Shown here one piece after another: positions 3,164-46,786 of a stretch of DNA of 64,000 nt. This DNA comes from Escherichia coli (GTDB taxonomy: Bacteria; Pseudomonadota; Gammaproteobacteria; Enterobacterales; Enterobacteriaceae), in assembly GCF_003991155.1 (NCBI RefSeq), contig NZ_CP031293.1; one strand, given 5' to 3'. The translations under genes were made by a program, and so were the position numbers. Position 1 is the first letter of the stretch. Each line of letters opens with the position of its first letter. The notes below the pieces were generated by a model that made no database searches, was not told the origin of the DNA, and saw nothing but the letters and a program-made list of their open reading frames with translations.

Positions 3164-5302
3164 ATGACACCGCATGTGATGAAACGAGACGGCTGCAAAG
3201 TGCCGTTTAAATCAGAGCGCATCAAAGAAGCGATTCTGCGTGCAGCTAAAGCAGCGGAAGTCGATGATGCCGATTATTGCGCCACTGTTGCTGCGGTTGT
3301 CAGCGAGCAGATGCAGGGCCGCAACCAGGTGGATATCAATGAGATCCAGACCGCAGTTGAAAACCAGCTGATGTCGGGGCCATACAAACAACTGGCTCGT
3401 GCCTACATCGAGTACCGTCACGATCGCGACATTGAACGTGAAAAACGCGGTCGCCTGAACCAGGAGATCCGTGGTCTGGTCGAGCAGACCAACTCCTCGT
3501 TACTCAACGAAAACGCCAACAAAGACAGCAAGGTGATTCCAACCCAGCGCGACCTGCTGGCCGGGATCGTGGCTAAACACTATGCACGCCAGCACCTGCT
3601 GCCGCGTGACGTGGTGCAGGCACATGAGCGTGGCGATATTCACTATCACGATCTCGATTACTCACCGTTCTTCCCGATGTTCAACTGCATGTTGATCGAC
3701 CTGAAAGGCATGCTGACCCAGGGCTTTAAAATGGGGAACGCCGAGATTGAACCGCCGAAGTCGATCTCTACGGCAACCGCGGTAACTGCGCAGATTATTG
3801 CTCAGGTCGCCAGCCATATTTATGGCGGCACCACCATTAACCGTATCGATGAAGTGCTGGCACCGTTTGTCACCGCCAGCTACAACAAACATCGCAAGAC
3901 CGCAGAAGAGTGGAACATCCCGGACGCCGAAGGCTACGCTAACTCTCGTACCATCAAAGAGTGCTACGATGCCTTCCAGTCGCTGGAGTACGAAGTAAAC
4001 ACCCTGCATACCGCCAACGGTCAAACGCCGTTTGTAACCTTTGGTTTTGGTCTGGGCACCAGCTGGGAATCGCGCCTGATTCAGGAATCGATCCTGCGTA
4101 ACCGTATCGCAGGCCTCGGTAAAAACCGTAAAACTGCGGTGTTCCCGAAACTGGTGTTTGCGATTCGCGATGGCCTGAACCATAAAAAAGGCGATCCGAA
4201 CTACGACATCAAACAGCTGGCGCTGGAGTGCGCAAGCAAGCGCATGTATCCGGATATCCTGAACTACGATCAGGTAGTGAAAGTCACCGGTTCGTTTAAA
4301 ACCCCGATGGGCTGCCGCAGCTTCCTCGGCGTGTGGGAAAATGAAAACGGCGAGCAGATCCACGATGGTCGTAACAACCTCGGCGTGATCAGCCTGAACC
4401 TGCCGCGTATTGCTCTGGAGGCAAAAGGCGATGAAGCCACCTTCTGGAAGCTGCTGGATGAACGTCTGGTGCTGGCACGTAAGGCGCTGATGACCCGTAT
4501 CGCTCGTCTCGAAGGCGTGAAAGCGCGCGTAGCCCCGATCCTCTATATGGAAGGTGCTTGTGGCGTGCGTCTGAATGCTGACGATGATGTTTCTGAAATC
4601 TTCAAAAACGGTCGTGCGTCTATTTCGCTGGGTTACATCGGCATCCACGAAACCATTAACGCGCTGTTTGGCGGCGAGCATGTGTATGACAACGAGCAGC
4701 TGCGCGCGAAAGGTATCGCCATTGTTGAACGTCTGCGTCAGGCGGTGGATCAGTGGAAAGAAGAAACGGGTTACGGTTTTAGCCTTTACAGCACGCCAAG
4801 TGAAAACCTGTGCGACCGCTTCTGCCGTCTCGATACCGCTGAGTTTGGCGTGGTGCCGGGCGTGACTGATAAAGGTTACTACACCAACAGTTTCCACCTC
4901 GATGTGGAGAAGAAGGTGAACCCGTACGACAAGATCGACTTTGAAGCGCCTTACCCGCCGCTGGCGAACGGTGGTTTCATTTGCTACGGCGAATATCCAA
5001 ACATTCAGCACAACCTGAAGGCGCTGGAAGATGTCTGGGATTACAGCTATCAGCATGTACCGTATTACGGCACCAATACGCCGATTGATGAGTGTTACGA
5101 GTGTGGTTTTACCGGTGAGTTTGAGTGCACCAGTAAAGGCTTCACCTGCCCGAAATGTGGTAACCATGACGCCTCCCGTGTGTCGGTGACTCGCCGCGTG
5201 TGCGGATATTTAGGTAGCCCGGATGCGCGTCCGTTTAACGCTGGTAAGCAGGAAGAAGTTAAGCGCCGCGTTAAACATTTGGGGAATGGGCAGATAGGTT
5301 AA
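3164..5302 (+). CDS. nrdD: Anaerobic ribonucleoside-triphosphate reductase (class III), 712 aa
   Basis: Translation MTPHVMKRDGCKVPFKSERIKEAI... matches NrdD; C-terminal glycyl-radical region and Cys-rich zinc site present. Confidence 0.97.
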   Translation: MTPHVMKRDGCKVPFKSERIKEAILRAAKAAEVDDADYCATVAAVVSEQMQGRNQVDINEIQTAVENQLMSGPYKQLARAYIEYRHDRDIEREKRGRLNQEIRGLVEQTNSSLLNENANKDSKVIPTQRDLLAGIVAKHYARQHLLPRDVVQAHERGDIHYHDLDYSPFFPMFNCMLIDLKGMLTQGFKMGNAEIEPPKSISTATAVTAQIIAQVASHIYGGTTINRIDEVLAPFVTASYNKHRKTAEEWNIPDAEGYANSRTIKECYDAFQSLEYEVNTLHTANGQTPFVTFGFGLGTSWESRLIQESILRNRIAGLGKNRKTAVFPKLVFAIRDGLNHKKGDPNYDIKQLALECASKRMYPDILNYDQVVKVTGSFKTPMGCRSFLGVWENENGEQIHDGRNNLGVISLNLPRIALEAKGDEATFWKLLDERLVLARKALMTRIARLEGVKARVAPILYMEGACGVRLNADDDVSEIFKNGRASISLGYIGIHETINALFGGEHVYDNEQLRAKGIAIVERLRQAVDQWKEETGYGFSLYSTPSENLCDRFCRLDTAEFGVVPGVTDKGYYTNSFHLDVEKKVNPYDKIDFEAPYPPLANGGFICYGEYPNIQHNLKALEDVWDYSYQHVPYYGTNTPIDECYECGFTGEFECTSKGFTCPKCGNHDASRVSVTRRVCGYLGSPDARPFNAGKQEEVKRRVKHLGNGQIG

Positions 5303-5321: not shown

Positions 5322-5343
5322 CCCTCTCCCTCAAGGGAGAGGG
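5322..5343. other. Perfect hairpin CCCTCTCCC-TCAA-GGGAGAGGG in nrdD-nrdG spacer
   Basis: Read directly; 9-bp stem, 4-nt loop, inside the 184-bp nrdD-nrdG intergenic region. Confidence 0.5.
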
Positions 5344-36380: not shown

Positions 36381-37019
36381 ATGCCCGGGCGCTTTGAACT
36401 AAAACCAACCCTGGAGAAAGTCTGGCACGCGCCGGACAATTTTCGCTTCATGGACCCGCTGCCGCCGATGCATCGTCGGGGGATCATTATTGCCGCCATT
36501 GTATTGGTAGTCGGATTTCTGCTTCCATCTGATGATACGCCCAACGCGCCAGTGGTGACGCGTGAAGCGCAGTTAGATATTCAGTCGCAATCACAACCAC
36601 CGACAGAAGAACAGCTGCGGGCGCAATTAGTCACGCCACAAAATGATCCTGATCAGGTGGCTCCGGTCGCTCCAGAACCAATACAGGAAGGCCAGCCAGA
36701 AGAGCAGCCGCAAACCACCCATACGCAACCATTCCAGCCAGATAGCGGAATTGATAATCAATGGCGCTCCTATCGTGTCGAACCCGGTAAAACGATGGCG
36801 CAGCTGTTCCGCGACCACGGACTGCCCGCTACCGATGTCTATGCCATGGCGCAGGTAGAAGGCGCGGGTAAGCCGCTGAGTAATTTGCAAAACGGGCAGA
36901 TGGTGAAAATCCGCCAGAACGCCAGCGGCGTGGTGACGGGCTTAACCATTGATACGGGGAATAATCAACAGGTCCTGTTTACCCGCCAGCCGGATGGCAG
37001 TTTTATTCGTGCGCGGTAG
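36381..37019 (+). CDS. ytfB: OapA/LysM-domain cell-division protein YtfB (212 aa)
   Basis: Translation from [29 protein letters not shown]...; GGAGG RBS before ATG at 36381. Confidence 0.9.
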
Positions 37020-37650
37020 ATGAAGGGTCAACCAAAAGCCAGCTAAGGATTGTCTCTTTGATGACCTTACGTCTGGCTTCCAGTGCCTGGGGTGAAACCA
37101 TACTGATGTGATAAACCAGGCCAAGCGTATGCTGGTTGATCAAATAATATCCCCCAAGCGCAGCAATATTAATATTCACCTGCAATGGGTCGATATCTGG
37201 CTTAAAAATATTGTGTTTCTTCCCTTCATCCAATAAGGATTCCATTAACTGCAAGTGCGCATGGTTAATTTCTAAAAGACGCTGTGACTTTGCATAATGC
37301 ACACCCTTACTTTGATTTTCACTATGCACAATTTTTAAAAACCAGGGATTAGAAATATAATAATCCCATGTAAAATCGATTATTTTCTCAATGGCTTTCT
37401 GTGGCGGAAGATCTGAGAAATCAAGGGCCTTTTCTTTTTGTCGAATATCGTTCCAGGTATATTCCAGTACTTCGATAAATAAATTTTCTTTATTACCAAA
37501 GTGGTGATAAACCGTCTGTTTACTGCACCCTGCTGCCTTGACAATATTATCGACTCTGGCCCCTTCGTAACCATATTCGGCAAATTCATTAACCGCGCAT
37601 AACAGCAGCTTTTCTTTCAGGCTCTGTACGTTGCTGGTATCAAGATACAT
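37003..37650 (-). CDS. TetR-family transcriptional regulator (215 aa), divergent from accessory operon
   Basis: N-terminal HTH signature ...[34 protein letters not shown]...; 3' end overlaps ytfB 3' end by 17 bp; AT-rich codon usage by eye. Confidence 0.85.
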
Positions 37651-37684
37651 AACGCTTCCCCACGACCTCTTCGTGGTGACTATC

Positions 37685-37746
37685 ATAACCTGATTTGATT
37701 TCAGCTTCAGAAAAAAGGGCAAAAACTTGTACTTTCATCAGGTTAT
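37685..37746. promoter_or_regulatory. Inverted repeat ATAACCTGAT ... ATCAGGTTAT in divergent TetR/operon intergenic region
   Basis: Read directly; 10-bp arms about 42 bp apart. Confidence 0.4.
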
Positions 37747-37773
37747 CAAATGTCCTGTGATCGCCATCGCATA

Positions 37774-37793
37774 TCAACCAACTAGATGGTTGA
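37774..37793. promoter_or_regulatory. Perfect palindrome TCAACCA-ACTAGA-TGGTTGA; candidate TetR operator about 70 bp upstream of first operon gene
   Basis: Read directly; 7-bp arms, 6-bp spacer, located in promoter region. Confidence 0.5.
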
Positions 37794-37862
37794 TCTTTTT
37801 ATCATCCAGTCGCAAGCTAATCATCACCAAGGAAACAAAATTCAAAAAAAGAGAGCTATTGT

Positions 37863-38654
37863 ATGAAATCCACTCGTCCTGTTGCCGTGATTACCGGAGC
37901 CGCTCGTGGTATTGGAAAGGGCTGTGCGCTGGAGCTTGCGCGTGGCGGATTTAATCTGCTGATTAATGATCGTCCGGATGCGGATAGCGTAGAAAAATTA
38001 CATGCCACACAACAAGAATGTCTGGCGGAAGGCGTGGAAGTGATTTGCTTCCCTGCTGATGTGGGCGATCTCTCCCTTCATGAAGAGATGCTCGACGCGG
38101 CGCAAAACCAGTGGGGACGTCTGGACTGTCTACTCAACAACGCAGGCATTTCAGTGAAAAAACGCGGTGACCTCCTCGACCTCGAACCAGACAGCTTCGA
38201 TCAAAACATTGCCATTAACACCCGCGCGCCGTTCTTCCTTGCTCAGGCATTCAGTAAGCGCTTACTGGCACAGCCGAAACCGGAAGCAGAACTGCCGCAC
38301 CGCTCGATTATTTTTGTCAGTTCCATCAACGCCATCATGCTGGCGATGAATCGCGGCGAATATACCATTGCCAAAACTGCCGTCTCCGCCGCAGCTCGTC
38401 TGTTTGCCGCTCGCCTTTGCAATGAACAAATTGGCGTTTATGAAGTGCGCCCTGGTCTCATCAAAACTGATATGACTATTCCGGCAACGGCTTATTACGA
38501 CGAACTGATTGCCAAAGGTCTGGTGCCGTGGGGACGTTGGGGTTATCCGGCTGATATTGCTTCCACTGTCCGCGCGATGGCGGAAGGTAAACTGATTTAC
38601 ACCTGCGGTCAGGCGGTTGCCATCGACGGCGGCTTAAGTATGCCGCGCTTCTGA
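37863..38654 (+). CDS. Short-chain dehydrogenase/reductase (SDR), 263 aa
   Basis: TGAARGIG Rossmann motif, NNAG, catalytic YxxxK (YTIAK) in translation. Confidence 0.85.
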   Translation: MKSTRPVAVITGAARGIGKGCALELARGGFNLLINDRPDADSVEKLHATQQECLAEGVEVICFPADVGDLSLHEEMLDAAQNQWGRLDCLLNNAGISVKKRGDLLDLEPDSFDQNIAINTRAPFFLAQAFSKRLLAQPKPEAELPHRSIIFVSSINAIMLAMNRGEYTIAKTAVSAAARLFAARLCNEQIGVYEVRPGLIKTDMTIPATAYYDELIAKGLVPWGRWGYPADIASTVRAMAEGKLIYTCGQAVAIDGGLSMPRF

Positions 38655-38663
38655 GGCTGAATC

Positions 38664-39506
38664 ATGAGAGATCTGTTACAACGCCCGGATTTATTCAGTA
38701 TCAATACCGCAACACTGGGCTATAAAACGCCGCTACCCGCCATTATTGATGCCTGCGCCGCACGCGGTATTGGCGCAATTGCCCCCTGGCGCAGGGAGTT
38801 GCAGGGTGAAGATCTCCAGCAAATCGCCCGCCAGCTTGCTGCCAGTAACATAAACGTTTCCGGTTTGTGCCGTAGCACCTACTACACCGCACCGACGCTG
38901 GCGGAGCGCAAACTGGCGATTGACGATAACCGCCGGGCGCTGGACGACGCCGCTGTACTGAACGCTGCCTGTTATATGCAGGTGGTTGGCGGTCTGCCAA
39001 TGGGAACAAAAGATCTGTACGAAGCGCGGGAACAGGTGAAACAAGGGATTCGCCAGTTGCTGCCACATTCGAAAGATGTCGGTGTGCCAATTGCACTGGA
39101 GCCACTGCACCCGATGACTGCTGCCGATCGTTCTTGTCTGTGCACGTTACGTCAGGCGCTGGACTGGTGTGATGAACTCGATCCCGATGGCGAATTTGGC
39201 CTCGGCGTGGCGGTAGATGTCTACCATGTCTGGTGGGATCCGGATCTCGCCAGTCAGATCCTGCGTGCCGGAAAACGCATCCTCGCGTTTCATGTTTCCG
39301 ACTGGTTAGTGCCGACCACCGATCTGGTCAATGACCGTGGAATGCCGGGAGATGGTGTCATCAATATTCCGTCAATTCGTCGGCTGGTTGAAAACGCCGG
39401 ATTTAATGGCGCTATTGAACTGGAAATATTCTCACCGTATTGGTGGCAGCAAGATATTGACAGCACACTGGATATTAGCGTCGATCGCATCGCGCATTAT
39501 TGCTAA
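38664..39506 (+). CDS. Xylose-isomerase-like TIM-barrel protein (sugar-phosphate isomerase/epimerase or dehydratase family), 280 aa
   Basis: Family-level resemblance of the translation to IolE/hydroxypyruvate-isomerase-type TIM barrels; 10-nt gap from SDR with GAGG RBS. Confidence 0.65.
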   Translation: MRDLLQRPDLFSINTATLGYKTPLPAIIDACAARGIGAIAPWRRELQGEDLQQIARQLAASNINVSGLCRSTYYTAPTLAERKLAIDDNRRALDDAAVLNAACYMQVVGGLPMGTKDLYEAREQVKQGIRQLLPHSKDVGVPIALEPLHPMTAADRSCLCTLRQALDWCDELDPDGEFGLGVAVDVYHVWWDPDLASQILRAGKRILAFHVSDWLVPTTDLVNDRGMPGDGVINIPSIRRLVENAGFNGAIELEIFSPYWWQQDIDSTLDISVDRIAHYC

Positions 39507-39515
39507 GGAATAATC

Positions 39516-40292
39516 ATGAGTGACCAACCCGTTCTGTTCAGCAGAGCGGCGGCTTCTTGCCGCCTGACATTGAACCGTGAAGATAAATGTCATGCTATTA
39601 ATGAAGAAATGATCGAATCTCTCGACCATTATTTAAATGAAATTGAAAATGACACGGCATTACGCTTAGTCGAATTAACGGCAACCGGCGATAAATTCTT
39701 TTGTGCGGGCGGCGATATTAAATCGTGGTCGGCCTATTCGCCATTAGATATGGGCAGAAAATGGATTAAACGCGGTAACGAGGTTTTTAATCGCCTGCGC
39801 AATTTACCCCAATTAACGGTTGCAAATCTCAACGGTCATACCATTGGCGGTGGGATTGAACTCGCCTTGTGCTGCGATATTCGTATTGCCCGCCCCGGCG
39901 CGAAATTCTCTAACCCGGAAGTGATGCTCGGCATGGTGCCTGGCTGGATGGGCATTGAACGCGTGCTTAATCAGGTTGGCCCGGTGGTCGGTCGCCAGAT
40001 GCTGATGCTGGGTAAACGCCTGACGGCGCAGGAAGCTCAGGCGGCGAATTTAATTGATGAAGTGGTAGAAAAAGAACAGGTGGAAAGCTGGATGGCGAAT
40101 CAGTTAGCGCAGCTGGAAAAATGCGGTCCGGTGGCGCTCGCACATATCAAGCAACTGATTCTGGCACTGGAAAATAAACATGCTGATTACCCGCACCAGT
40201 TACTGGCTGGATTAATGTCCGCCACTCAGGATTGCCAGCAGGCGACGCGCGCCTTTGCCGAAAAAAGTAGCGTGAGCTTCCAAAATCAATAA
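39516..40292 (+). CDS. Crotonase-fold enzyme (enoyl-CoA hydratase/isomerase family), 258 aa
   Basis: FCAGGDIK and GHTIGGGIELALCCDIRIA oxyanion-hole motifs in translation. Confidence 0.85.
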   Translation: MSDQPVLFSRAAASCRLTLNREDKCHAINEEMIESLDHYLNEIENDTALRLVELTATGDKFFCAGGDIKSWSAYSPLDMGRKWIKRGNEVFNRLRNLPQLTVANLNGHTIGGGIELALCCDIRIARPGAKFSNPEVMLGMVPGWMGIERVLNQVGPVVGRQMLMLGKRLTAQEAQAANLIDEVVEKEQVESWMANQLAQLEKCGPVALAHIKQLILALENKHADYPHQLLAGLMSATQDCQQATRAFAEKSSVSFQNQ

Positions 40293-40301
40293 GGAAATTG
40301 T

Positions 40302-41843
40302 ATGCGTAAGATAACAACCACCGAGACACTGGCGGCGCAAATTCAGGACGGCGCAACCATTGCCATTAGCGGTAATGGCGGCGGAATGGTGGAAGCGGAC
40401 CATATTCTGGCTGCTATTGAAGCGCGTTTCCTGCAAACCGGACACCCGCGCGATCTGACATTAATCCACTCGCTGGGCATTGGCGATCGCGACTGCAAAG
40501 GCACTAACCGCTTCGCTCATGCAGATATGCTCAAACGCATCATTGCCGGGCACTTTACCTGGTCGCCCAAAATGCAGGCGCTGGTAAAAAATAACACGAT
40601 TGAAGCCTACTGCTTTCCTGGTGGCGTGATTCAGGCACTGCTACGGGAGATCGGCGCCGGACGTCCGGGGCTTTTTACCCACGTTGGGCTGGGATCGTTT
40701 GTTGATCCACGCAATGGCGGCGGTAAGTCGAATGAATGCACGACCGACGACCTGGTAGAACTGATTGAAATCGATGGTGAAACCAAACTTCGTTATCGCC
40801 CTTTCAAAGTGGATTACGCGATTTTGCGTGGCACTTATGCCGATCCACGAGGCAACGTCAGCCTCGAAGAAGAGGCGATTGATATGGATAGCTATTCGAT
40901 GGCGCTGGCAGCACACAACAGCGGCGGCAAAGTGTTCGTACAGGTACGCGATGTGCTGGAAGCTGGCGCGATTGAACCACGCCGGGTCAAATTACCGGGC
41001 ATTCTGGTTGATGGCATCGTTGAACACCGCGAACAACCGCAAACCTATCTTGGCGGTTACGACCTGACCATTAGCGGTCAACATCGCCGTCTGAGTTCTA
41101 ACGACGCTATTGAACTGGTTAGTCATCCAGTACGCCGCCTGATTGCCCGTCGGGCAGCACGCGAACTGGTGGCTGGCGCTTCAACCAACTTTGGCTTTGG
41201 TATTCCTGGCGGTATTCCAGGCGTAGCGCTGCGCGAAGGCGTTCCTTACCAAAGTTTATGGCTGAGCGTCGAGCAAGGTGTACATAACGGCATGATGCTG
41301 GATGATGCGTTCTTCGGCTGCGCCCGCAACGCCGACGCCATTATTCCATCACTCGATCAATTTGAGTTCTACAGTGGCGGAGGGATCGATATCACCTTCC
41401 TCGGCATGGGAGAGATGGATCAGTACGGTAACGTCAACGTCTCCCATCTCAATGGCAATCTGATTGGCCCCGGCGGATTTCTCGAAATTGCGCAAAACGC
41501 CCGTAAAGTGGTGTTCTGCGGCACGTTCGACGCCAAAGGTAGCAAGATCGATGTAACGCCAGATGGCTTGCATATCGCCCAGTCAGGTCAAATCCCTAAA
41601 CTGGTTACCCAGGTGGAAAAAATCACTTTTAGCGCCGCCTACGCACAGCAAAGCGGTCAGGAAGTGTTGTATATCACTGAACGTGCAGTATTCCAGTTAA
41701 CGGCAGAAGGCGTTGAATTAATTGAAATCGCACCGGGTGTGGAGATTGAGCGCGACATTCTGCCGTATATGGCTTTCCGTCCAATTATCAAGCACCCACG
41801 CCTGATGGAAAGTAGCCTGTTTACGCCGATGGAGGATGCATGA
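40302..41843 (+). CDS. Fused alpha/beta family I CoA-transferase (acyl-CoA:acetate/3-ketoacid CoA-transferase, YdiF-like), 513 aa
   Basis: Translation parallels remembered E. coli YdiF along its length (e.g. ITERAVF.L...G..LIEIAPGV..E.DIL near C-terminus). Confidence 0.8.
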   Translation: MRKITTTETLAAQIQDGATIAISGNGGGMVEADHILAAIEARFLQTGHPRDLTLIHSLGIGDRDCKGTNRFAHADMLKRIIAGHFTWSPKMQALVKNNTIEAYCFPGGVIQALLREIGAGRPGLFTHVGLGSFVDPRNGGGKSNECTTDDLVELIEIDGETKLRYRPFKVDYAILRGTYADPRGNVSLEEEAIDMDSYSMALAAHNSGGKVFVQVRDVLEAGAIEPRRVKLPGILVDGIVEHREQPQTYLGGYDLTISGQHRRLSSNDAIELVSHPVRRLIARRAARELVAGASTNFGFGIPGGIPGVALREGVPYQSLWLSVEQGVHNGMMLDDAFFGCARNADAIIPSLDQFEFYSGGGIDITFLGMGEMDQYGNVNVSHLNGNLIGPGGFLEIAQNARKVVFCGTFDAKGSKIDVTPDGLHIAQSGQIPKLVTQVEKITFSAAYAQQSGQEVLYITERAVFQLTAEGVELIEIAPGVEIERDILPYMAFRPIIKHPRLMESSLFTPMEDA

Positions 41844-43921
41844 GCCAGCTTGATGACACCCTCCTTGATGCGCTGACACACGTCACTTTCCCAAAGGGTT
41901 TTGTGTCAGCAGAGCCAGCGTCAATTGTCACGGTTGAAGATGTCGATTACCCGATCTGGCAAGTTGATGCGCTAGTCGTTGGTAGCGGCGCAGCAGGATT
42001 ACGTGCGGCAGTTGAACTTAAACGCCGCCAGCAAAATGTGCTGATCGCCACCGCCGGGTTATATATGGGGACATCGGCATGTTCTGGCTCTGATAAACAG
42101 ACGCTGTTTACCGCCGCTACCGCGGGCAACGGCGATAACTTCGCCAAACTGGCGGAAGCACTGGCGAGCGGTGGGGCGATGGATCATGACACCGCTTATG
42201 TCGAAGCGGTAGGTTCTCTGCACACTCTTGGCGGGTTGCAATATCTTGGTCTGGAATTACCGGAAGATCGCTATGGCGCGATTCTTCGTTATCAAACCGA
42301 CCATGACGAAGCCGGGCGTGCAACCTCGTGTGGGCCGCGTACCTCAAGGTTAATGGTGAAAGTGCTGTTGGAAGAAGTACAGCGCCTCGCCATTCCAGTG
42401 TTGACCAGTGCAACAGTGATTAAACTGCTGCATCAGCGTGACGAAAACGGCGAAGACCGTGTGGCGGGGGCAATCCTCGCGACCGGTCATCGCGCCCTTA
42501 ACCCATGGGGGCTGGCAATTGTGACTGCGCCCAATGTGGTACTGGCAACAGGAGGGCCTGGCGAGCTTTATCGCGACAGTGTGTACCCACACAAATGTTT
42601 TGGCTCGCTGGGGCTGGCGCTGGAGGAAGGCCTGACACTAACTAATCTGACCGAAAGCCAGTTTGGTATAGGCACGCCGCGCAGCACGTTTCCGTGGAAT
42701 TTGTCCGGCACCTATGTGCAGGTGATCCCATATATCTATTCCGTGGATGCTGAGGGTAACGAGTATAACTTCCTCGCGGATTACTATCGCACCACCCAGG
42801 AGCTGGCTTCAAACATCTTCCGTAAAGGCTATCAGTGGCCGTTCCACGCCACGCGGGTAATGGATTTTGGCTCCAGCTTGTTAGATATGGCGGTGGCGCA
42901 AGAGCAGCAATCAGGGCGTCAGGTATTTATGGATTTCAATCGTAATCCTGTAGCGGTGCCTGGTGATTTGCCCTTCTCATTAGATCGACTGGACGACGAC
43001 GTTCGCGCGTATCTGGAAAATAACGACGCTCTGGCACCATCGCCCATCGAACGACTGCAACGAATGAATCCGCTGTCTATCTCGCTGTATAAGATGCACG
43101 GTTACGATCTCACCACGCAGCCATTGCAGTTTGCCATGAATAATCAGCACATGAATGGCGGCATTGAAGTCGATATCTGGGGACAAACATCTCTGCCCGG
43201 TTGTTTTGCAGTGGGGGAAGTTGCTGGCACACACGGCGTCACCCGACCTGGCGGCGCGGCGTTGAATGCCGGGCAGGTTTTTGCTGTTCGTCTGGCGCGC
43301 TTTATTGGTTGCACGCAAAAGCGGAATATTGATGGAGATATTGCACAGCTGGCAGCTCCGGCACTGGCTTCTATAAGAGAGATCATTACTCAGGCGCACG
43401 ATAACGGGACCGGGATGCCGTTGTCGATTGTGAGAGAAAAAATTCAGGCACGAATGTCTGACTATGCGGGATTTATTTGCCATGCCGATAAAGTTCGACG
43501 TGCCACTCGTGATGCCCTGCTATTGAGTGAATTTGTCCAACAGCATGGATTGGCAATCAAACATGTGGGCGAAGTTGCCGAGCTGTTTATGTGGCGGCAT
43601 ATGGCACTGACTTCTGCCGCCGTATTAACGCAATTGACGCATTATATTGACGCAGGTGGTGGTAGCCGGGGAGCACGTATTATTCTCGACAGTGATGGAA
43701 ATTCTATTCCGCAAACACGAAATGGTTTTTGTGATGCCTGGCGCTTTCGTTCAGAGCGTACTGAGGATAAAAAAGATAAACTACTTATTCATTATTGCAA
43801 CGGTATCTTTCACGTCAGAGAAACACCTGTTCGTGAGTTTCCTATTATCCGAGGTATTTGGTTTGAAAAAAACTGGCCTGGTTTTCTTAATGGGACAATT
43901 TACCAGCCACAGGATGAATGA
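41840..43921 (+). CDS. FAD-dependent oxidoreductase of the fumarate reductase/succinate dehydrogenase/L-aspartate oxidase flavoprotein family with long C-terminal extension, 693 aa
   Basis: N-terminal DALVVGSGAAGLRAAVE dinucleotide fold, TGGPGELY, and C-terminal GGIEVD...GCFAVGEVAGT-HG..R.GG.AL motif; ATGA overlap with upstream gene and GGAGG RBS. Confidence 0.75.
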   Translation: MSQLDDTLLDALTHVTFPKGFVSAEPASIVTVEDVDYPIWQVDALVVGSGAAGLRAAVELKRRQQNVLIATAGLYMGTSACSGSDKQTLFTAATAGNGDNFAKLAEALASGGAMDHDTAYVEAVGSLHTLGGLQYLGLELPEDRYGAILRYQTDHDEAGRATSCGPRTSRLMVKVLLEEVQRLAIPVLTSATVIKLLHQRDENGEDRVAGAILATGHRALNPWGLAIVTAPNVVLATGGPGELYRDSVYPHKCFGSLGLALEEGLTLTNLTESQFGIGTPRSTFPWNLSGTYVQVIPYIYSVDAEGNEYNFLADYYRTTQELASNIFRKGYQWPFHATRVMDFGSSLLDMAVAQEQQSGRQVFMDFNRNPVAVPGDLPFSLDRLDDDVRAYLENNDALAPSPIERLQRMNPLSISLYKMHGYDLTTQPLQFAMNNQHMNGGIEVDIWGQTSLPGCFAVGEVAGTHGVTRPGGAALNAGQVFAVRLARFIGCTQKRNIDGDIAQLAAPALASIREIITQAHDNGTGMPLSIVREKIQARMSDYAGFICHADKVRRATRDALLLSEFVQQHGLAIKHVGEVAELFMWRHMALTSAAVLTQLTHYIDAGGGSRGARIILDSDGNSIPQTRNGFCDAWRFRSERTEDKKDKLLIHYCNGIFHVRETPVREFPIIRGIWFEKNWPGFLNGTIYQPQDE

Positions 43922-43941
43922 TATTGCAAAGGTTAATCACT

Positions 43942-44418
43942 ATGCGAAATATAATTAGATCTATTAATGCTCTACTTGCAGCATTGAACATTACCATTTT
44001 GGCGATCATCGTGGCATGTGTGACGTGGCAGGTGGCTGCACGATTTATATTTACTAGTCCCAGTATTTTTACAGATGAACTCAGCCGTTTGCTCTTTATT
44101 TGTCTTGGACTTTTTGGTGGGGCATACACCGCAGGGCAAAACCGGCATCTGGCGATTGACCTGATACCTATGATGCTGAAAGGAAAAGCCCGACGTCATT
44201 TATTTTTGTGTATTCAGATTATCGTTATTATCTTCGCTACCATCATTATGGTATATGGTGGTGGGCTATTAACGATGGATACATTCGATTCAGGTCAGAC
44301 CTCGCCCGCTTTAGGCTGGCAAATGGGATATATCTATATGAGCATCCCGATGAGTGGTGTACTTATTATTATATACACCATAGATATGGTTTTAACCGAA
44401 CTTAAACAACCACTCTAA
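43942..44418 (+). CDS. TRAP transporter small permease (DctQ family); alternative start 43918 overlapping upstream stop
   Basis: Short hydrophobic 4-TM-type translation MRNIIRSINALLAALNITILAIIVACVTWQ...; gene order Q-M-P. Confidence 0.8.
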   Translation: MRNIIRSINALLAALNITILAIIVACVTWQVAARFIFTSPSIFTDELSRLLFICLGLFGGAYTAGQNRHLAIDLIPMMLKGKARRHLFLCIQIIVIIFATIIMVYGGGLLTMDTFDSGQTSPALGWQMGYIYMSIPMSGVLIIIYTIDMVLTELKQPL

Positions 44419-44460
44419 AGATAACAAACAACAACCAACCATAGTAGGAATGGAGAAATT

Positions 44461-45762
44461 ATGGATTACTGGTTACCGATTATTGTGTTATTTGGTGCCT
44501 TCTTTTTTATGTTGGCATTAGGTGTACCTATTGTTTATGCCATTGGTTTATCGACACTGGCATCAATTTCCACACAACTCGATTTCAACTCAGCATTGAG
44601 TGTGGTTTCCCAAAAGTTAGCCTCCGGGTTAGATAGTTTTACGTTGTTGGCAATCCCATTTTTTATCTTGTCTGGCAACATTATGAATCATGGAGGAATA
44701 GCGCGACGATTAATCAACTTTGCCCGTATTCTCGGCGGTCGTCTGCCAGGCTCACTTGCCCACTGTAATATTCTCGCCAATATGCTGTTCGGGGCAATTT
44801 CTGGTTCAGCCGTGGCTTCGGCGGCTGCGATGGGCGGCGTCATGCATCCGCAACAGGTTAAAGAGGGCTACGACCCGGCATTCAGTACTGCGGTTAACGT
44901 TGCCTCTGCCCCGACGGGTTTGCTTATTCCACCAAGTAATACGTTAATCGTCTATTCACTGGTCAGTGGTGGTACTTCTATTGCCGCACTGTTTCTGGCG
45001 GGTTATGTTCCGGGAATTTTGCTGGGTCTGGCACTGATGGTAATAGCCGGTATTATCGCGGTACGTCGCGGTTATCCAAAGCCAGAACGCCCGACTTTAC
45101 GCCAGGCTGGCGTTGCGATATGGATGGCTATCCCCAGTATTTTCCTGATTATTTTAATTATGGGGGGTGTATTAAGTGGTATTTTTACCCCGACAGAGGC
45201 CTCCGCAATTGCAGTAATTTATACCCTTTTCCTTGCACTGGTTCTTTATCGTGAAATCTCAGTTAAAGATTTACCTAAAATATTTCTGGAATCCGTTATT
45301 ACCACTGCAATTGTCTTGTTATTAATTGGTTCTTCGATGGGAATGTCATGGGCGATGTCAAACGCTGACGTTCCCTTCCTGATTCTCGATTTGCTTAACA
45401 CTATTTCTGACAACCCAATAATAATCCTGCTTATTATCAATATTATCCTGTTGATTATCGGCACTTTTATGGATATGACACCGGCGGTACTGATTTTTAC
45501 GCCGATATTTTTACCGGTTGTCACCGAACTGGGCATGGACCCGATTCACTTTGGTATTGTCATGGTACTGAACATGTGTATCGGTATTTGTACTCCGCCT
45601 GTAGGCAGTGTGTTATTTGTCGGTTGTAGTGTATCTAAATTACCGATTAATAAAATTATCAAACCTATGCTGCCATTTTATGCCGTGATGGTATTGGTGC
45701 TGGCAATGGTGACCTATATTCCGCAAATCAGTATGGCATTGCCAAGAGCACTGGGTTACTGA
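44461..45762 (+). CDS. TRAP transporter large permease (DctM family), 433 aa
   Basis: Polytopic translation MDYWLPIIVLFGAFFFMLALGVPIVYAIGL... typical of DctM. Confidence 0.85.
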   Translation: MDYWLPIIVLFGAFFFMLALGVPIVYAIGLSTLASISTQLDFNSALSVVSQKLASGLDSFTLLAIPFFILSGNIMNHGGIARRLINFARILGGRLPGSLAHCNILANMLFGAISGSAVASAAAMGGVMHPQQVKEGYDPAFSTAVNVASAPTGLLIPPSNTLIVYSLVSGGTSIAALFLAGYVPGILLGLALMVIAGIIAVRRGYPKPERPTLRQAGVAIWMAIPSIFLIILIMGGVLSGIFTPTEASAIAVIYTLFLALVLYREISVKDLPKIFLESVITTAIVLLLIGSSMGMSWAMSNADVPFLILDLLNTISDNPIIILLIINIILLIIGTFMDMTPAVLIFTPIFLPVVTELGMDPIHFGIVMVLNMCIGICTPPVGSVLFVGCSVSKLPINKIIKPMLPFYAVMVLVLAMVTYIPQISMALPRALGY

Positions 45763-45814
45763 TGCGCATTCACTGGCGGCACCTGCCGCCATATTTATTA
45801 GAAAAGGAACATCT

Positions 45815-46786
45815 ATGAAAATAAAAGTATCCGCTGGCATTATCGGTGCTGTTCTTATGTTATCCGCAAGCCAGTCCTGGGCAGTGACATTAAAACTGAG
45901 TCATAATCAGGATAAGTCTCATCCTGTTCATAAAGCGATGGAGTTCTTTGCGAAAAAGAGCAAAGAGTACTCTAACGGTGATATTACTATTCGTATTTAT
46001 CCAAATGGAACATTGGGTACTCAACGAGAAACAATGGAGCTGATTCGTTCTGGCGCTATTCCACTGGTAAAAACCAACGCGGCAGAAATGGAAGCATTTG
46101 AAAATTCCTATAAATTATTTAGCCTGCCTTATTTGTTCCGCGATCGTGATCATTATTATCAGGTCATGCAGGGCGATATCGGGAGAAAAATCCTCGACTC
46201 AACGAAAAGCAAAGGTTATTTCGGGCTGACTTTTTATGATGGAGGCGCCCGCAGTTTCTACGGCAATAAACCAGTACTGAAACCAGACGATCTCAAAGGC
46301 ATGAAAGTCCGTGTCCAGCCAAGTCCTGGCGCAGTTGAAATGATCAAAGTCATGGGCGGTAACCCGACGCCACTGGATTACGGCGAGTTGTATACAGCCT
46401 TACAGCAGGGTGTGGTCGATATGGCAGAAAACAGCGTGATGGCGCTGACCACCATGCGTCACGGTGAAGTGGCAAAATCCTTCAGCCTTGACGAACACAC
46501 TATGGTTCCCGATGTGGTTCTGATGAGCAATGCTGCGTTTGATAAACTTAGCCCGGAAAATCAGGCAGTTATATTAAAAGCAGCTAAAGAATCAATGAGC
46601 TACATGAAAGACTTGTGGAGCGAGGAAGAGAAACAAGAATTTGCAAAACTGGATAAAATGGGCGTGAAAGTCTACCAGGTAGATAAAGCTCCGTTTATCG
46701 AGAAAGTACAGCCAATGTACGCAAACTTCGCTAAGGACAACCCAGCCCTTGCCCCAATGCTGGCTGATATTCAGGCAGCTAAGTAA
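45815..46786 (+). CDS. TRAP transporter periplasmic substrate-binding protein (DctP family), 323 aa
   Basis: Signal peptide MKIKVSAGIIGAVLMLSASQSWA then DctP-like SBP translation; AAAGGA RBS. Confidence 0.85.
   Translation: MKIKVSAGIIGAVLMLSASQSWAVTLKLSHNQDKSHPVHKAMEFFAKKSKEYSNGDITIRIYPNGTLGTQRETMELIRSGAIPLVKTNAAEMEAFENSYKLFSLPYLFRDRDHYYQVMQGDIGRKILDSTKSKGYFGLTFYDGGARSFYGNKPVLKPDDLKGMKVRVQPSPGAVEMIKVMGGNPTPLDYGELYTALQQGVVDMAENSVMALTTMRHGEVAKSFSLDEHTMVPDVVLMSNAAFDKLSPENQAVILKAAKESMSYMKDLWSEEEKQEFAKLDKMGVKVYQVDKAPFIEKVQPMYANFAKDNPALAPMLADIQAAK

Follow-up and report, generated by a model that had tools for sequence, protein, structure and literature searches.

A candidate YtfA operator beside a CRP site in the promoter region of an accessory eight-gene operon of Escherichia coli

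In the TetR/tetO and QacR/IR1 systems, regulator and target genes diverge from a common spacer, in which a palindromic operator lies over promoter elements, and repression is relieved by a ligand. A similar layout is found in the 64-kb stretch of an Escherichia coli chromosome analysed here (contig NZ_CP031293.1, assembly GCF_003991155.1; referred to as the window), in which the TetR-family regulator gene ytfA is divergent from an accessory operon of eight genes. A near-perfect palindrome (37773-37794) in the spacer between them (37651-37862) overlaps the predicted operon promoter and is very probably the operator of YtfA, judging from its symmetry and its conservation alongside the regulator; by analogy, ligand-relieved repression would be expected here too. 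TetR of Tn10 is autoregulated, since its operators overlap both of the divergent promoters. The ytfA spacer differs in having a single candidate YtfA operator, placed about 108 bp upstream of the point where ytfA transcription is predicted to begin.

The proposed logic of the operon promoter likewise resembles that of lac: a predicted class I CRP site at about -61.5, a weak core promoter, and a specific repressor as the second input. We propose that the YtfA operon is governed by a comparable AND gate ('no glucose' and 'substrate present'), with all positions counted from a predicted transcription start. The lac operator lacO1 lies downstream of the transcription start, whereas the YtfA site would lie between the CRP site and the -10 element, overlapping the -35 element, and the repressor belongs to the TetR family rather than the LacI family.

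The AlphaFold model of YtfA (pLDDT 91.5) was compared with solved structures using Foldseek. The closest neighbours were an uncharacterised Corynebacterium TetR protein followed by E. coli RutR, which is thus the closest characterised structural neighbour (TM 0.72, 21% identity); RutR and YtfA are also sequence relatives over the DNA-binding domain. RutR is the TetR-family regulator of pyrimidine catabolism in E. coli, with the box consensus TTGACCAnnTGGTCAA (PMC2475637). The RutR box and the YtfA site are both dyads with an ACCA/TGGT half-site core, but the half-sites are spaced by 6 bp at the YtfA site and by 2 bp in the RutR box, with flanks of CAACCA and TGACCA respectively. Given this difference in spacing (N6 versus N2), the palindrome does not qualify as a RutR box. 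YtfA, whose ligand domain is of the TetR_C_29 family, scores 37.8 bits where the RutR equivalog cut-off is 368 bits; no RutR-like link to uracil is evident, and no NCBIfam equivalog was assigned to YtfA. The acyl-CoA-sensing regulators Bacillus FadR, Thermus PfmR and Mycobacterium KstR2 are PDB relatives that align over both the ligand domain and the helix-turn-helix of YtfA, but with just 18-22% identity and below every equivalog threshold. The fold search does not discriminate between classes of effector, since RutR binds uracil while FadR and KstR2 bind acyl-CoA.

Conservation of the palindrome with ytfA

The window derives from an E. coli chromosome, and the 1.8-kb stretch around the spacer is 100% identical to that in several complete genomes; of 5426 complete E. 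coli genomes, at least 3139 carry this stretch at ≥80% coverage. The features on which the argument turns are as follows.

37003..37650, minus strand: ytfA, full-length TetR-family regulator gene encoding 215 aa with TetR_N and TetR_C_29 domains (Pfam)
37773..37794, no strand: candidate YtfA operator, ATCAACCA-aCTAGa-TGGTTGAT, assigned from its dyad symmetry and conservation, with AACCAAC (37776-82) and GGTTG (37788-92) invariant
37863..46786, plus strand: accessory operon of eight genes, assigned from open reading frames, Pfam, NCBIfam and the RefSeq annotation of an identical locus

The Pfam matches of the regulator are PF00440 (1.9e-14) and PF17938 (4.4e-30), and RefSeq annotates the coding sequence at the identical locus as a TetR/AcrR regulator. 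The island that carries both transcription units is inserted between ytfB and rplI. K-12 has neither the operon nor the spacer, and the 5' part of its regulator gene is missing as well, with yjfZ found there instead, adjoining rplI; all that is left in MG1655 (4427694-4428095, L022) is the 3' 402 bp, annotated as the pseudogene ytfA (b4205). Because the K-12 ytfA is the 3' remnant of the same gene, the regulator in the window is full-length YtfA. A 2019 survey of the TetR family described YtfA as accessory in E. coli (PMC6790063).

The original prediction had described a perfect palindrome, TCAACCA-ACTAGA-TGGTTGA at 37774-37793, in a 212-bp spacer. Both points were borne out: the spacer runs between the ytfA start (37650, minus strand) and the start of the first operon gene, encoding a short-chain dehydrogenase/reductase (SDR), at 37863, and the palindrome was recovered both by reading the sequence and with a repeat finder. 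It extends to an 8-6-8 arrangement with 10 of 11 symmetric pairs. Only 0.28% of simulated 212-bp spacers of the same composition hold a palindrome of such quality (P ~0.003 per spacer), compared with 2.6% that hold any perfect 10-nt inverted repeat, such as the one discussed below. Both repeats are unusual for one spacer, the palindrome much more so. Across the 64-kb window, two 22-bp stretches with at least 10 of 11 symmetric pairs were found, against 0.63 expected under a first-order Markov model.

The spacer was aligned across 15 orthologous sequences whose regulators range from 99% down to 57% identity. Orthologous loci were collected from E. coli E69, enterotoxigenic E. coli (ETEC) H10407, E. 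whittamii, E. albertii, a divergent Escherichia, Klebsiella spallanzanii, Salmonella enterica, Citrobacter, Lelliottia, Leminorella, Entomohabitans and five metagenomic or other contigs. The divergent layout of regulator and SDR genes and the downstream gene order are kept in all orthologous loci collected. AACCAAC and GGTTG are invariant across the 15 spacers while the surrounding spacer diverges, and the most conserved 16-nt window of the spacer falls at 37776-37792 (1.77 of 2 bits). An exact AACCA-N6-TGGTT occurs once in each of the 17 island-carrying loci, always in the ytfA-SDR spacer; it was not found in the four distant-homolog loci (exact search) or in K-12 (one mismatch allowed). The helix-turn-helix of YtfA is nearly invariant across the same orthologs, and a 16-bp dyad whose half-site centres are 11 bp apart fits a putative helix-turn-helix homodimer. 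The original prediction of TetR operators in this spacer is supported for the palindrome, which is a dyad, is co-inherited with ytfA, is near-invariant across genera and overlaps the predicted -35 element, and is not supported for the second inverted repeat, whose arms are not conserved.

Several further observations were made on this motif and its surroundings. The spacer is unusually polymorphic within E. coli: megablast recovered it from 1585 genomes only, 404 of them at 80-90% identity, against at least 3139 genomes with the island, and at least two deep allele classes exist, one in this window and one in E69 and ETEC H10407; both retain the operator, the CRP site and the promoter boxes. 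In one metagenomic ortholog (L020, ~3829-3875) the spacer contains the operator twice, as ATCAACCAACCGATCGGTTGATC in its usual position and as CAAACCAACCGAATGGTTGGTTT shortly after the predicted -10 element, which suggests tighter repression in that lineage. The contig scan returned 10 loci, among which four were distant non-orthologs (L007, L009-L011; the gene arrangement of L009 differs); none of the four contains the motif, so no operator could be defined from them for the wider family. Sequences elsewhere in the window that differ from the core by one mismatch (15729, 44376, 51194) are no more frequent than chance would allow (4 found, 2.1 expected), and the one inside the operon, at 44376, is without the flanking bases. 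The operator left half recurs as CAACCAAC at 44428-44445, immediately before the ribosome-binding site that serves the TRAP large-permease gene; it is without a right half-site and at chance level for an 8-mer in 64 kb. The sole other 22-bp near-perfect palindrome of the window, CCCTCTCCCTCAAGGGAGAGGG at 5322-5343, is G+C-rich and directly follows the stop codon of a 712-aa open reading frame, and is on these grounds terminator-like and unrelated.

The CRP site and the predicted operon promoter

Directly adjoining the palindrome is a CRP site that had been overlooked in the original prediction. The elements on the operon side of the spacer are as follows.

37756..37771, no strand: CRP binding site TGTGATCGCCATCGCA, centre 37763.5, assigned from matrix score, consensus match, conservation and published chromatin immunoprecipitation sequencing (ChIP-seq) of the homologous site
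37790..37795, plus strand: predicted -35 element TTGATC in the operator right arm, invariant or near-invariant (TTGATA in Citrobacter, TTGTTC in L019)
37813..37818, plus strand: predicted weak -10 element CAAGCT (CAnnnT or TAAGTT in orthologs), with the predicted start at ~37825 (37823-37826)
37851..37855, plus strand: Shine-Dalgarno sequence GAGAG of the first operon gene, read from the sequence, with GAGG or GGAG at the same place in orthologs

TGTGATCGCCATCGCA agrees with the CRP consensus TGTGA-N6-TCACA at 9 of 10 core positions and is the sole match in the window with at most one mismatch. A CRP matrix was built from 106 published ChIP-seq sites, with the ytfA-spacer site left out; TGTGATCGCCATCGCA received the top score of the 64-kb window (15.9 bits, the 84th percentile of the training sites), and all orthologs have a CRP site at the equivalent place (10.7-17.9 bits). 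Among the CRP ChIP-seq peaks that Haycocks et al. (2015) reported for ETEC H10407 is one of high confidence whose motif is TGTGATCACTATCGCA, listed as 'ETEC-specific/ytfA' and placed between ETEC_4557 and ytfA, the occupancy thus coming from another strain than that of the window (PMC4287617). Inspection of the sequence context confirmed that TGTGATCACTATCGCA in H10407 is the homologous site, immediately left of the palindrome. Upstream of the CRP site, most orthologs share a further small block, CA-N6-TA (37736-37749, within TTTCATCAGGTTATCAA); it could be a plus-strand -10-like element or a site for another factor.

The promoter itself was sought by a rough sigma-70 scoring anchored on the operator and averaged across the 15 orthologs. 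A single conserved promoter-like arrangement, formed by TTGATC and CAAGCT, emerged on the operon strand; its mean score was 5.60, and no other plus-strand position exceeded 0.02. The two boxes are 17 bp apart in every ortholog pattern-matched at the operator (Citrobacter L014 unmatched), and A 37814 (-11) and T 37818 (-7) of the predicted -10 element are invariant. The predicted start at ~37825 would put the CRP centre at -61.5, the canonical class I position, and the operator centre (37783.5) at -41.5. Among the orthologs, the right outer arm of the palindrome (TTGAT) is invariant and the left outer arm drifts, as the model would lead one to expect if the right arm is doubly constrained by also serving as the -35 element. 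The Entomohabitans locus also fits the model, since its CRP-operator-promoter module is as far from the operon start as elsewhere and has shifted away from ytfA. The spacer of this ortholog (Entomohabitans teleogrylli, L006 5578-6000) measures 423 bp, against ~212, with a G+C-rich insertion of ~210 bp between the ytfA promoter and the CRP/operator module. Other -10 candidates, TATCAT (37800-05), GCTAAT and TAATCA (37816-23), were dropped as unconserved or as requiring spacers of 20-22 bp from TTGATC, and their distances to the CRP site are non-canonical; a sigma-54 reading (GG-N10-GC) gave no fit.

From these positions we infer the following regulatory scheme. The operator would span about -52 to -31, its right arm including the -35 element TTGATC, followed after 17 bp by CAAGCT. 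When no inducer is present, a YtfA dimer on AACCA-N6-TGGTT would cover the -35 element and the DNA between CRP and RNA polymerase, blocking initiation. An inducer, either a CoA-thioester intermediate or the carboxylate that the operon's transporter takes up, would release YtfA from the DNA, and the promoter would fire only if cAMP-CRP were also bound, that is, if glucose were absent. Induction would in this way need cAMP-CRP together with the loss of YtfA.

Several points weigh against this scheme. The predicted -10 element is weak, with 2 of 6 consensus matches in E. coli, and a generic sigma-70 promoter scan of 37500-38000 found no promoter. The CRP site and the operator are not equally spaced in all orthologs (20 or 19 bp). 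The centre of the published ChIP-seq peak (4940903) lies ~190-205 bp from the motif (4941093-4941108; NC_017633.1; PMC4287617), so that the CRP assignment rests on the authors' motif call. Finally, the 2019 survey gives 'no data available' for the function, targets and ligand of YtfA (PMC6790063). On balance, it is probable that the palindrome serves as a YtfA operator controlling a CRP-dependent promoter of the eight-gene operon.

The second inverted repeat, the ytfA promoter and competing explanations

The original prediction had paired the palindrome with a second inverted repeat (37685-37746) and regarded such sites as typical of TetR autoregulation. The elements that bear on this are on the ytfA side of the spacer.

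37682..37687, minus strand: predicted ytfA -10 element TATGAT, conserved in 15 orthologs, with G at -14 (37689)
37685..37694, no strand: left arm of the second repeat, ATAACCTGAT, overlapping the ytfA -10 and extended -10, with only ATAAC conserved
37737..37746, no strand: right arm of the second repeat, ATCAGGTTAT, with only CA (37736-37) and TA (37744-45) conserved
37777..37749, minus strand: alternative ytfA promoter, with -35 TTGATA (37777->37772, in the operator left arm), a 17-bp spacer lying under the CRP site, and -10 GACATT (37754->37749)

The second repeat is indeed present, with perfect 10-nt arms 42 nt apart (sequence reading and repeat finder). Its arms are complementary at 10 of 10 positions only in this allele and in E. 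whittamii, at 8 of 10 in E. coli E69, at 7 of 10 in E. albertii and Salmonella, and at 4-6 of 10 in Klebsiella, Lelliottia, Leminorella and most distant orthologs; the repeat is also broken in ETEC H10407, and no compensatory changes between the arms were found across the orthologs. The conservation of ATAAC in the left arm is accounted for by the ytfA -10 hexamer. The second repeat is best explained as a strain-specific coincidence overlapping the -10 element.

The ytfA -10 element was found by locating the motif directly, since the length of the 5' untranslated region (5'UTR) differs among orthologs. A variant of it (TATGAT, TAAGAT, TATAGT or TATAAT) lies 27-38 nt upstream of the ATG in 15 of 15 orthologs; positions 37682 and 37685-37687 are invariant, and the distant group has a TGn extension. 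TATGAT is thus read as the predicted extended -10 element of ytfA, with a start at ~37675, and ytfA would be transcribed from a separate proximal promoter (extended -10, 37687->37682) clear of the operator. With the operator ~108 bp upstream of this predicted start, and no further match to AACCA-N6-TGGTT close to ytfA in the orthologs even when 2 mismatches were allowed, the proposed autoregulation of ytfA is unsupported and appears doubtful. The predicted ytfA leader also contains an imperfect 9-nt inverted repeat, TCCCCACGA / TCGTGGTGA (37657-37679, minus strand), which spans the complement of the Shine-Dalgarno sequence; it could fold in the mRNA, and is not obviously conserved.

Other explanations of the two repeats were weighed against the assignment of the palindrome to YtfA. 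It is hardly plausible that the palindrome and the T-rich tract downstream of it act as an RNA hairpin (as an intrinsic terminator or as a leader attenuator) and not as a protein site. A terminator scan does flag 37773-37794 followed by CTTTTTAT, the predicted fold has -9 kcal/mol (z = -2.95), and the T-rich tract is fairly conserved; against this, only 3 of the 8 stem pairs are G-C, no Rfam match was found in the spacer, and none of the pairs has changed on both sides among the 15 orthologs, the core being invariant and the outer pairs broken by changes on the left side. The T-rich tract can be explained as the 17-bp spacer of the promoter. Nothing obvious would transcribe the palindrome, since it lies upstream of the sole conserved plus-strand promoter and between divergent gene starts. 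It is also very unlikely that the palindrome is bound by another regulator, a global or unlinked factor, with YtfA acting elsewhere. Unlinked targets are known for some TetR-family proteins (PMC6790063), but the site accompanies ytfA in every context, including Leminorella and metagenomic loci with different outer neighbours, and in K-12 it is gone together with the ytfA 5' end. The conserved module holds no other regulator gene, and the half-site geometry given above suits a homodimer of YtfA's type.

Two further explanations concern ytfA itself. One assigns autoregulation to the second repeat (37685-94/37737-46), which would serve YtfA as an additional operator or as a partner in looping. 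The low expectation for a perfect 10-nt inverted repeat in such spacers (2.6%), the overlap of the left arm with the predicted ytfA -10 element and the presence in the arms of TAACC/GGTTA, which is like the operator half-site, all speak for it; yet the decay of arm complementarity to 4-8 of 10 with no compensatory change, the loss in H10407, a 42-nt gap unsuited to one TetR dimer and the lack of any near-match to the operator near ytfA in the orthologs make it quite improbable, and what is conserved in the left arm belongs to the -10 hexamer. In the other, the palindrome would repress E. coli ytfA as well, through an upstream, operator-proximal promoter. Of the minus-strand candidates in the E. 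coli spacer, the alternative promoter listed above scores best, at 8.7 compared with 7.7 for the proximal promoter, and comparable candidates exist in other Escherichia, Lelliottia (11.2) and Leminorella. However, conservation of this promoter does not extend to E. albertii, Salmonella, Citrobacter, Klebsiella or the distant orthologs, and its -10 bases are poorly conserved, while the proximal -10 element is kept by all orthologs. We consider this upstream promoter unlikely; it would be compatible with YtfA control of the operon from the palindrome.

The operon and its possible pathway

The eight genes of the operon, all on the plus strand, are as follows.

37863-38654, plus strand: SDR
38664-39506, plus strand: xylose-isomerase-like TIM barrel protein
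39516-40292, plus strand: enoyl-CoA hydratase (crotonase)
40302-41843, plus strand: YdiF/FadX-like single-chain CoA-transferase
41840-43921, plus strand: 693-aa FAD_binding_2 oxidoreductase
43942-44418, plus strand: TRAP small permease
44461-45762, plus strand: TRAP large permease
45815-46786, plus strand: TRAP binding protein

This gene order is kept in the Salmonella, Citrobacter, Lelliottia, Leminorella and metagenomic orthologs. The best solved relatives of the TRAP binding protein (E 1e-60 to 1e-72) include described binders of D-glucuronate and D-galacturonate (PMC7660916), and the enzyme set of the operon matches no known hexuronate pathway. No specific NCBIfam equivalog was found for the enzymes of the operon, the SDR matching only a generic 3-ketoacyl-ACP reductase model, and the 693-aa flavoprotein has no PDB relative at E < 1e-10. 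Literature searches based on the operon's gene content and on ETEC locus tags returned only the CRP ChIP-seq paper (PMC4287617). The presence of CoA-transferase and enoyl-CoA hydratase genes makes a CoA-thioester effector plausible, and the inducer could be either the transported carboxylate or a CoA thioester. We tentatively suggest, as a possibility that falls short of an even chance, that the operon specifies an undescribed CoA-dependent pathway for the catabolism of a hexuronate-like carboxylate, such as a sugar acid or a cyclitol carboxylate.

YtfA is among the few E. coli TetR-family regulators without a known target, ligand or function (PMC6790063). The pairing of this regulator with this operator is not described in the literature searched, and the regulatory architecture is conventional; as an ordinary switch it is of modest interest, raised somewhat by the uncharacterised pathway under its control. 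The operon sets more than half of E. coli strains apart from K-12 and is also found in some Salmonella, Citrobacter and relatives. The system has escaped work on the model strain because K-12 has only the pseudogene remnant. The CRP site offers an explanation for the orphan 'ETEC-specific' CRP ChIP-seq peak, and a defined operator, a CRP site and a predicted promoter together make a directly testable regulatory model. The operon promoter could be used as a reporter to screen for the inducer of this unannotated eight-gene nutrient-use operon. If the model is true, the operator and promoter would constitute a ready-made biosensor for the inducer, and hence for the substrate.

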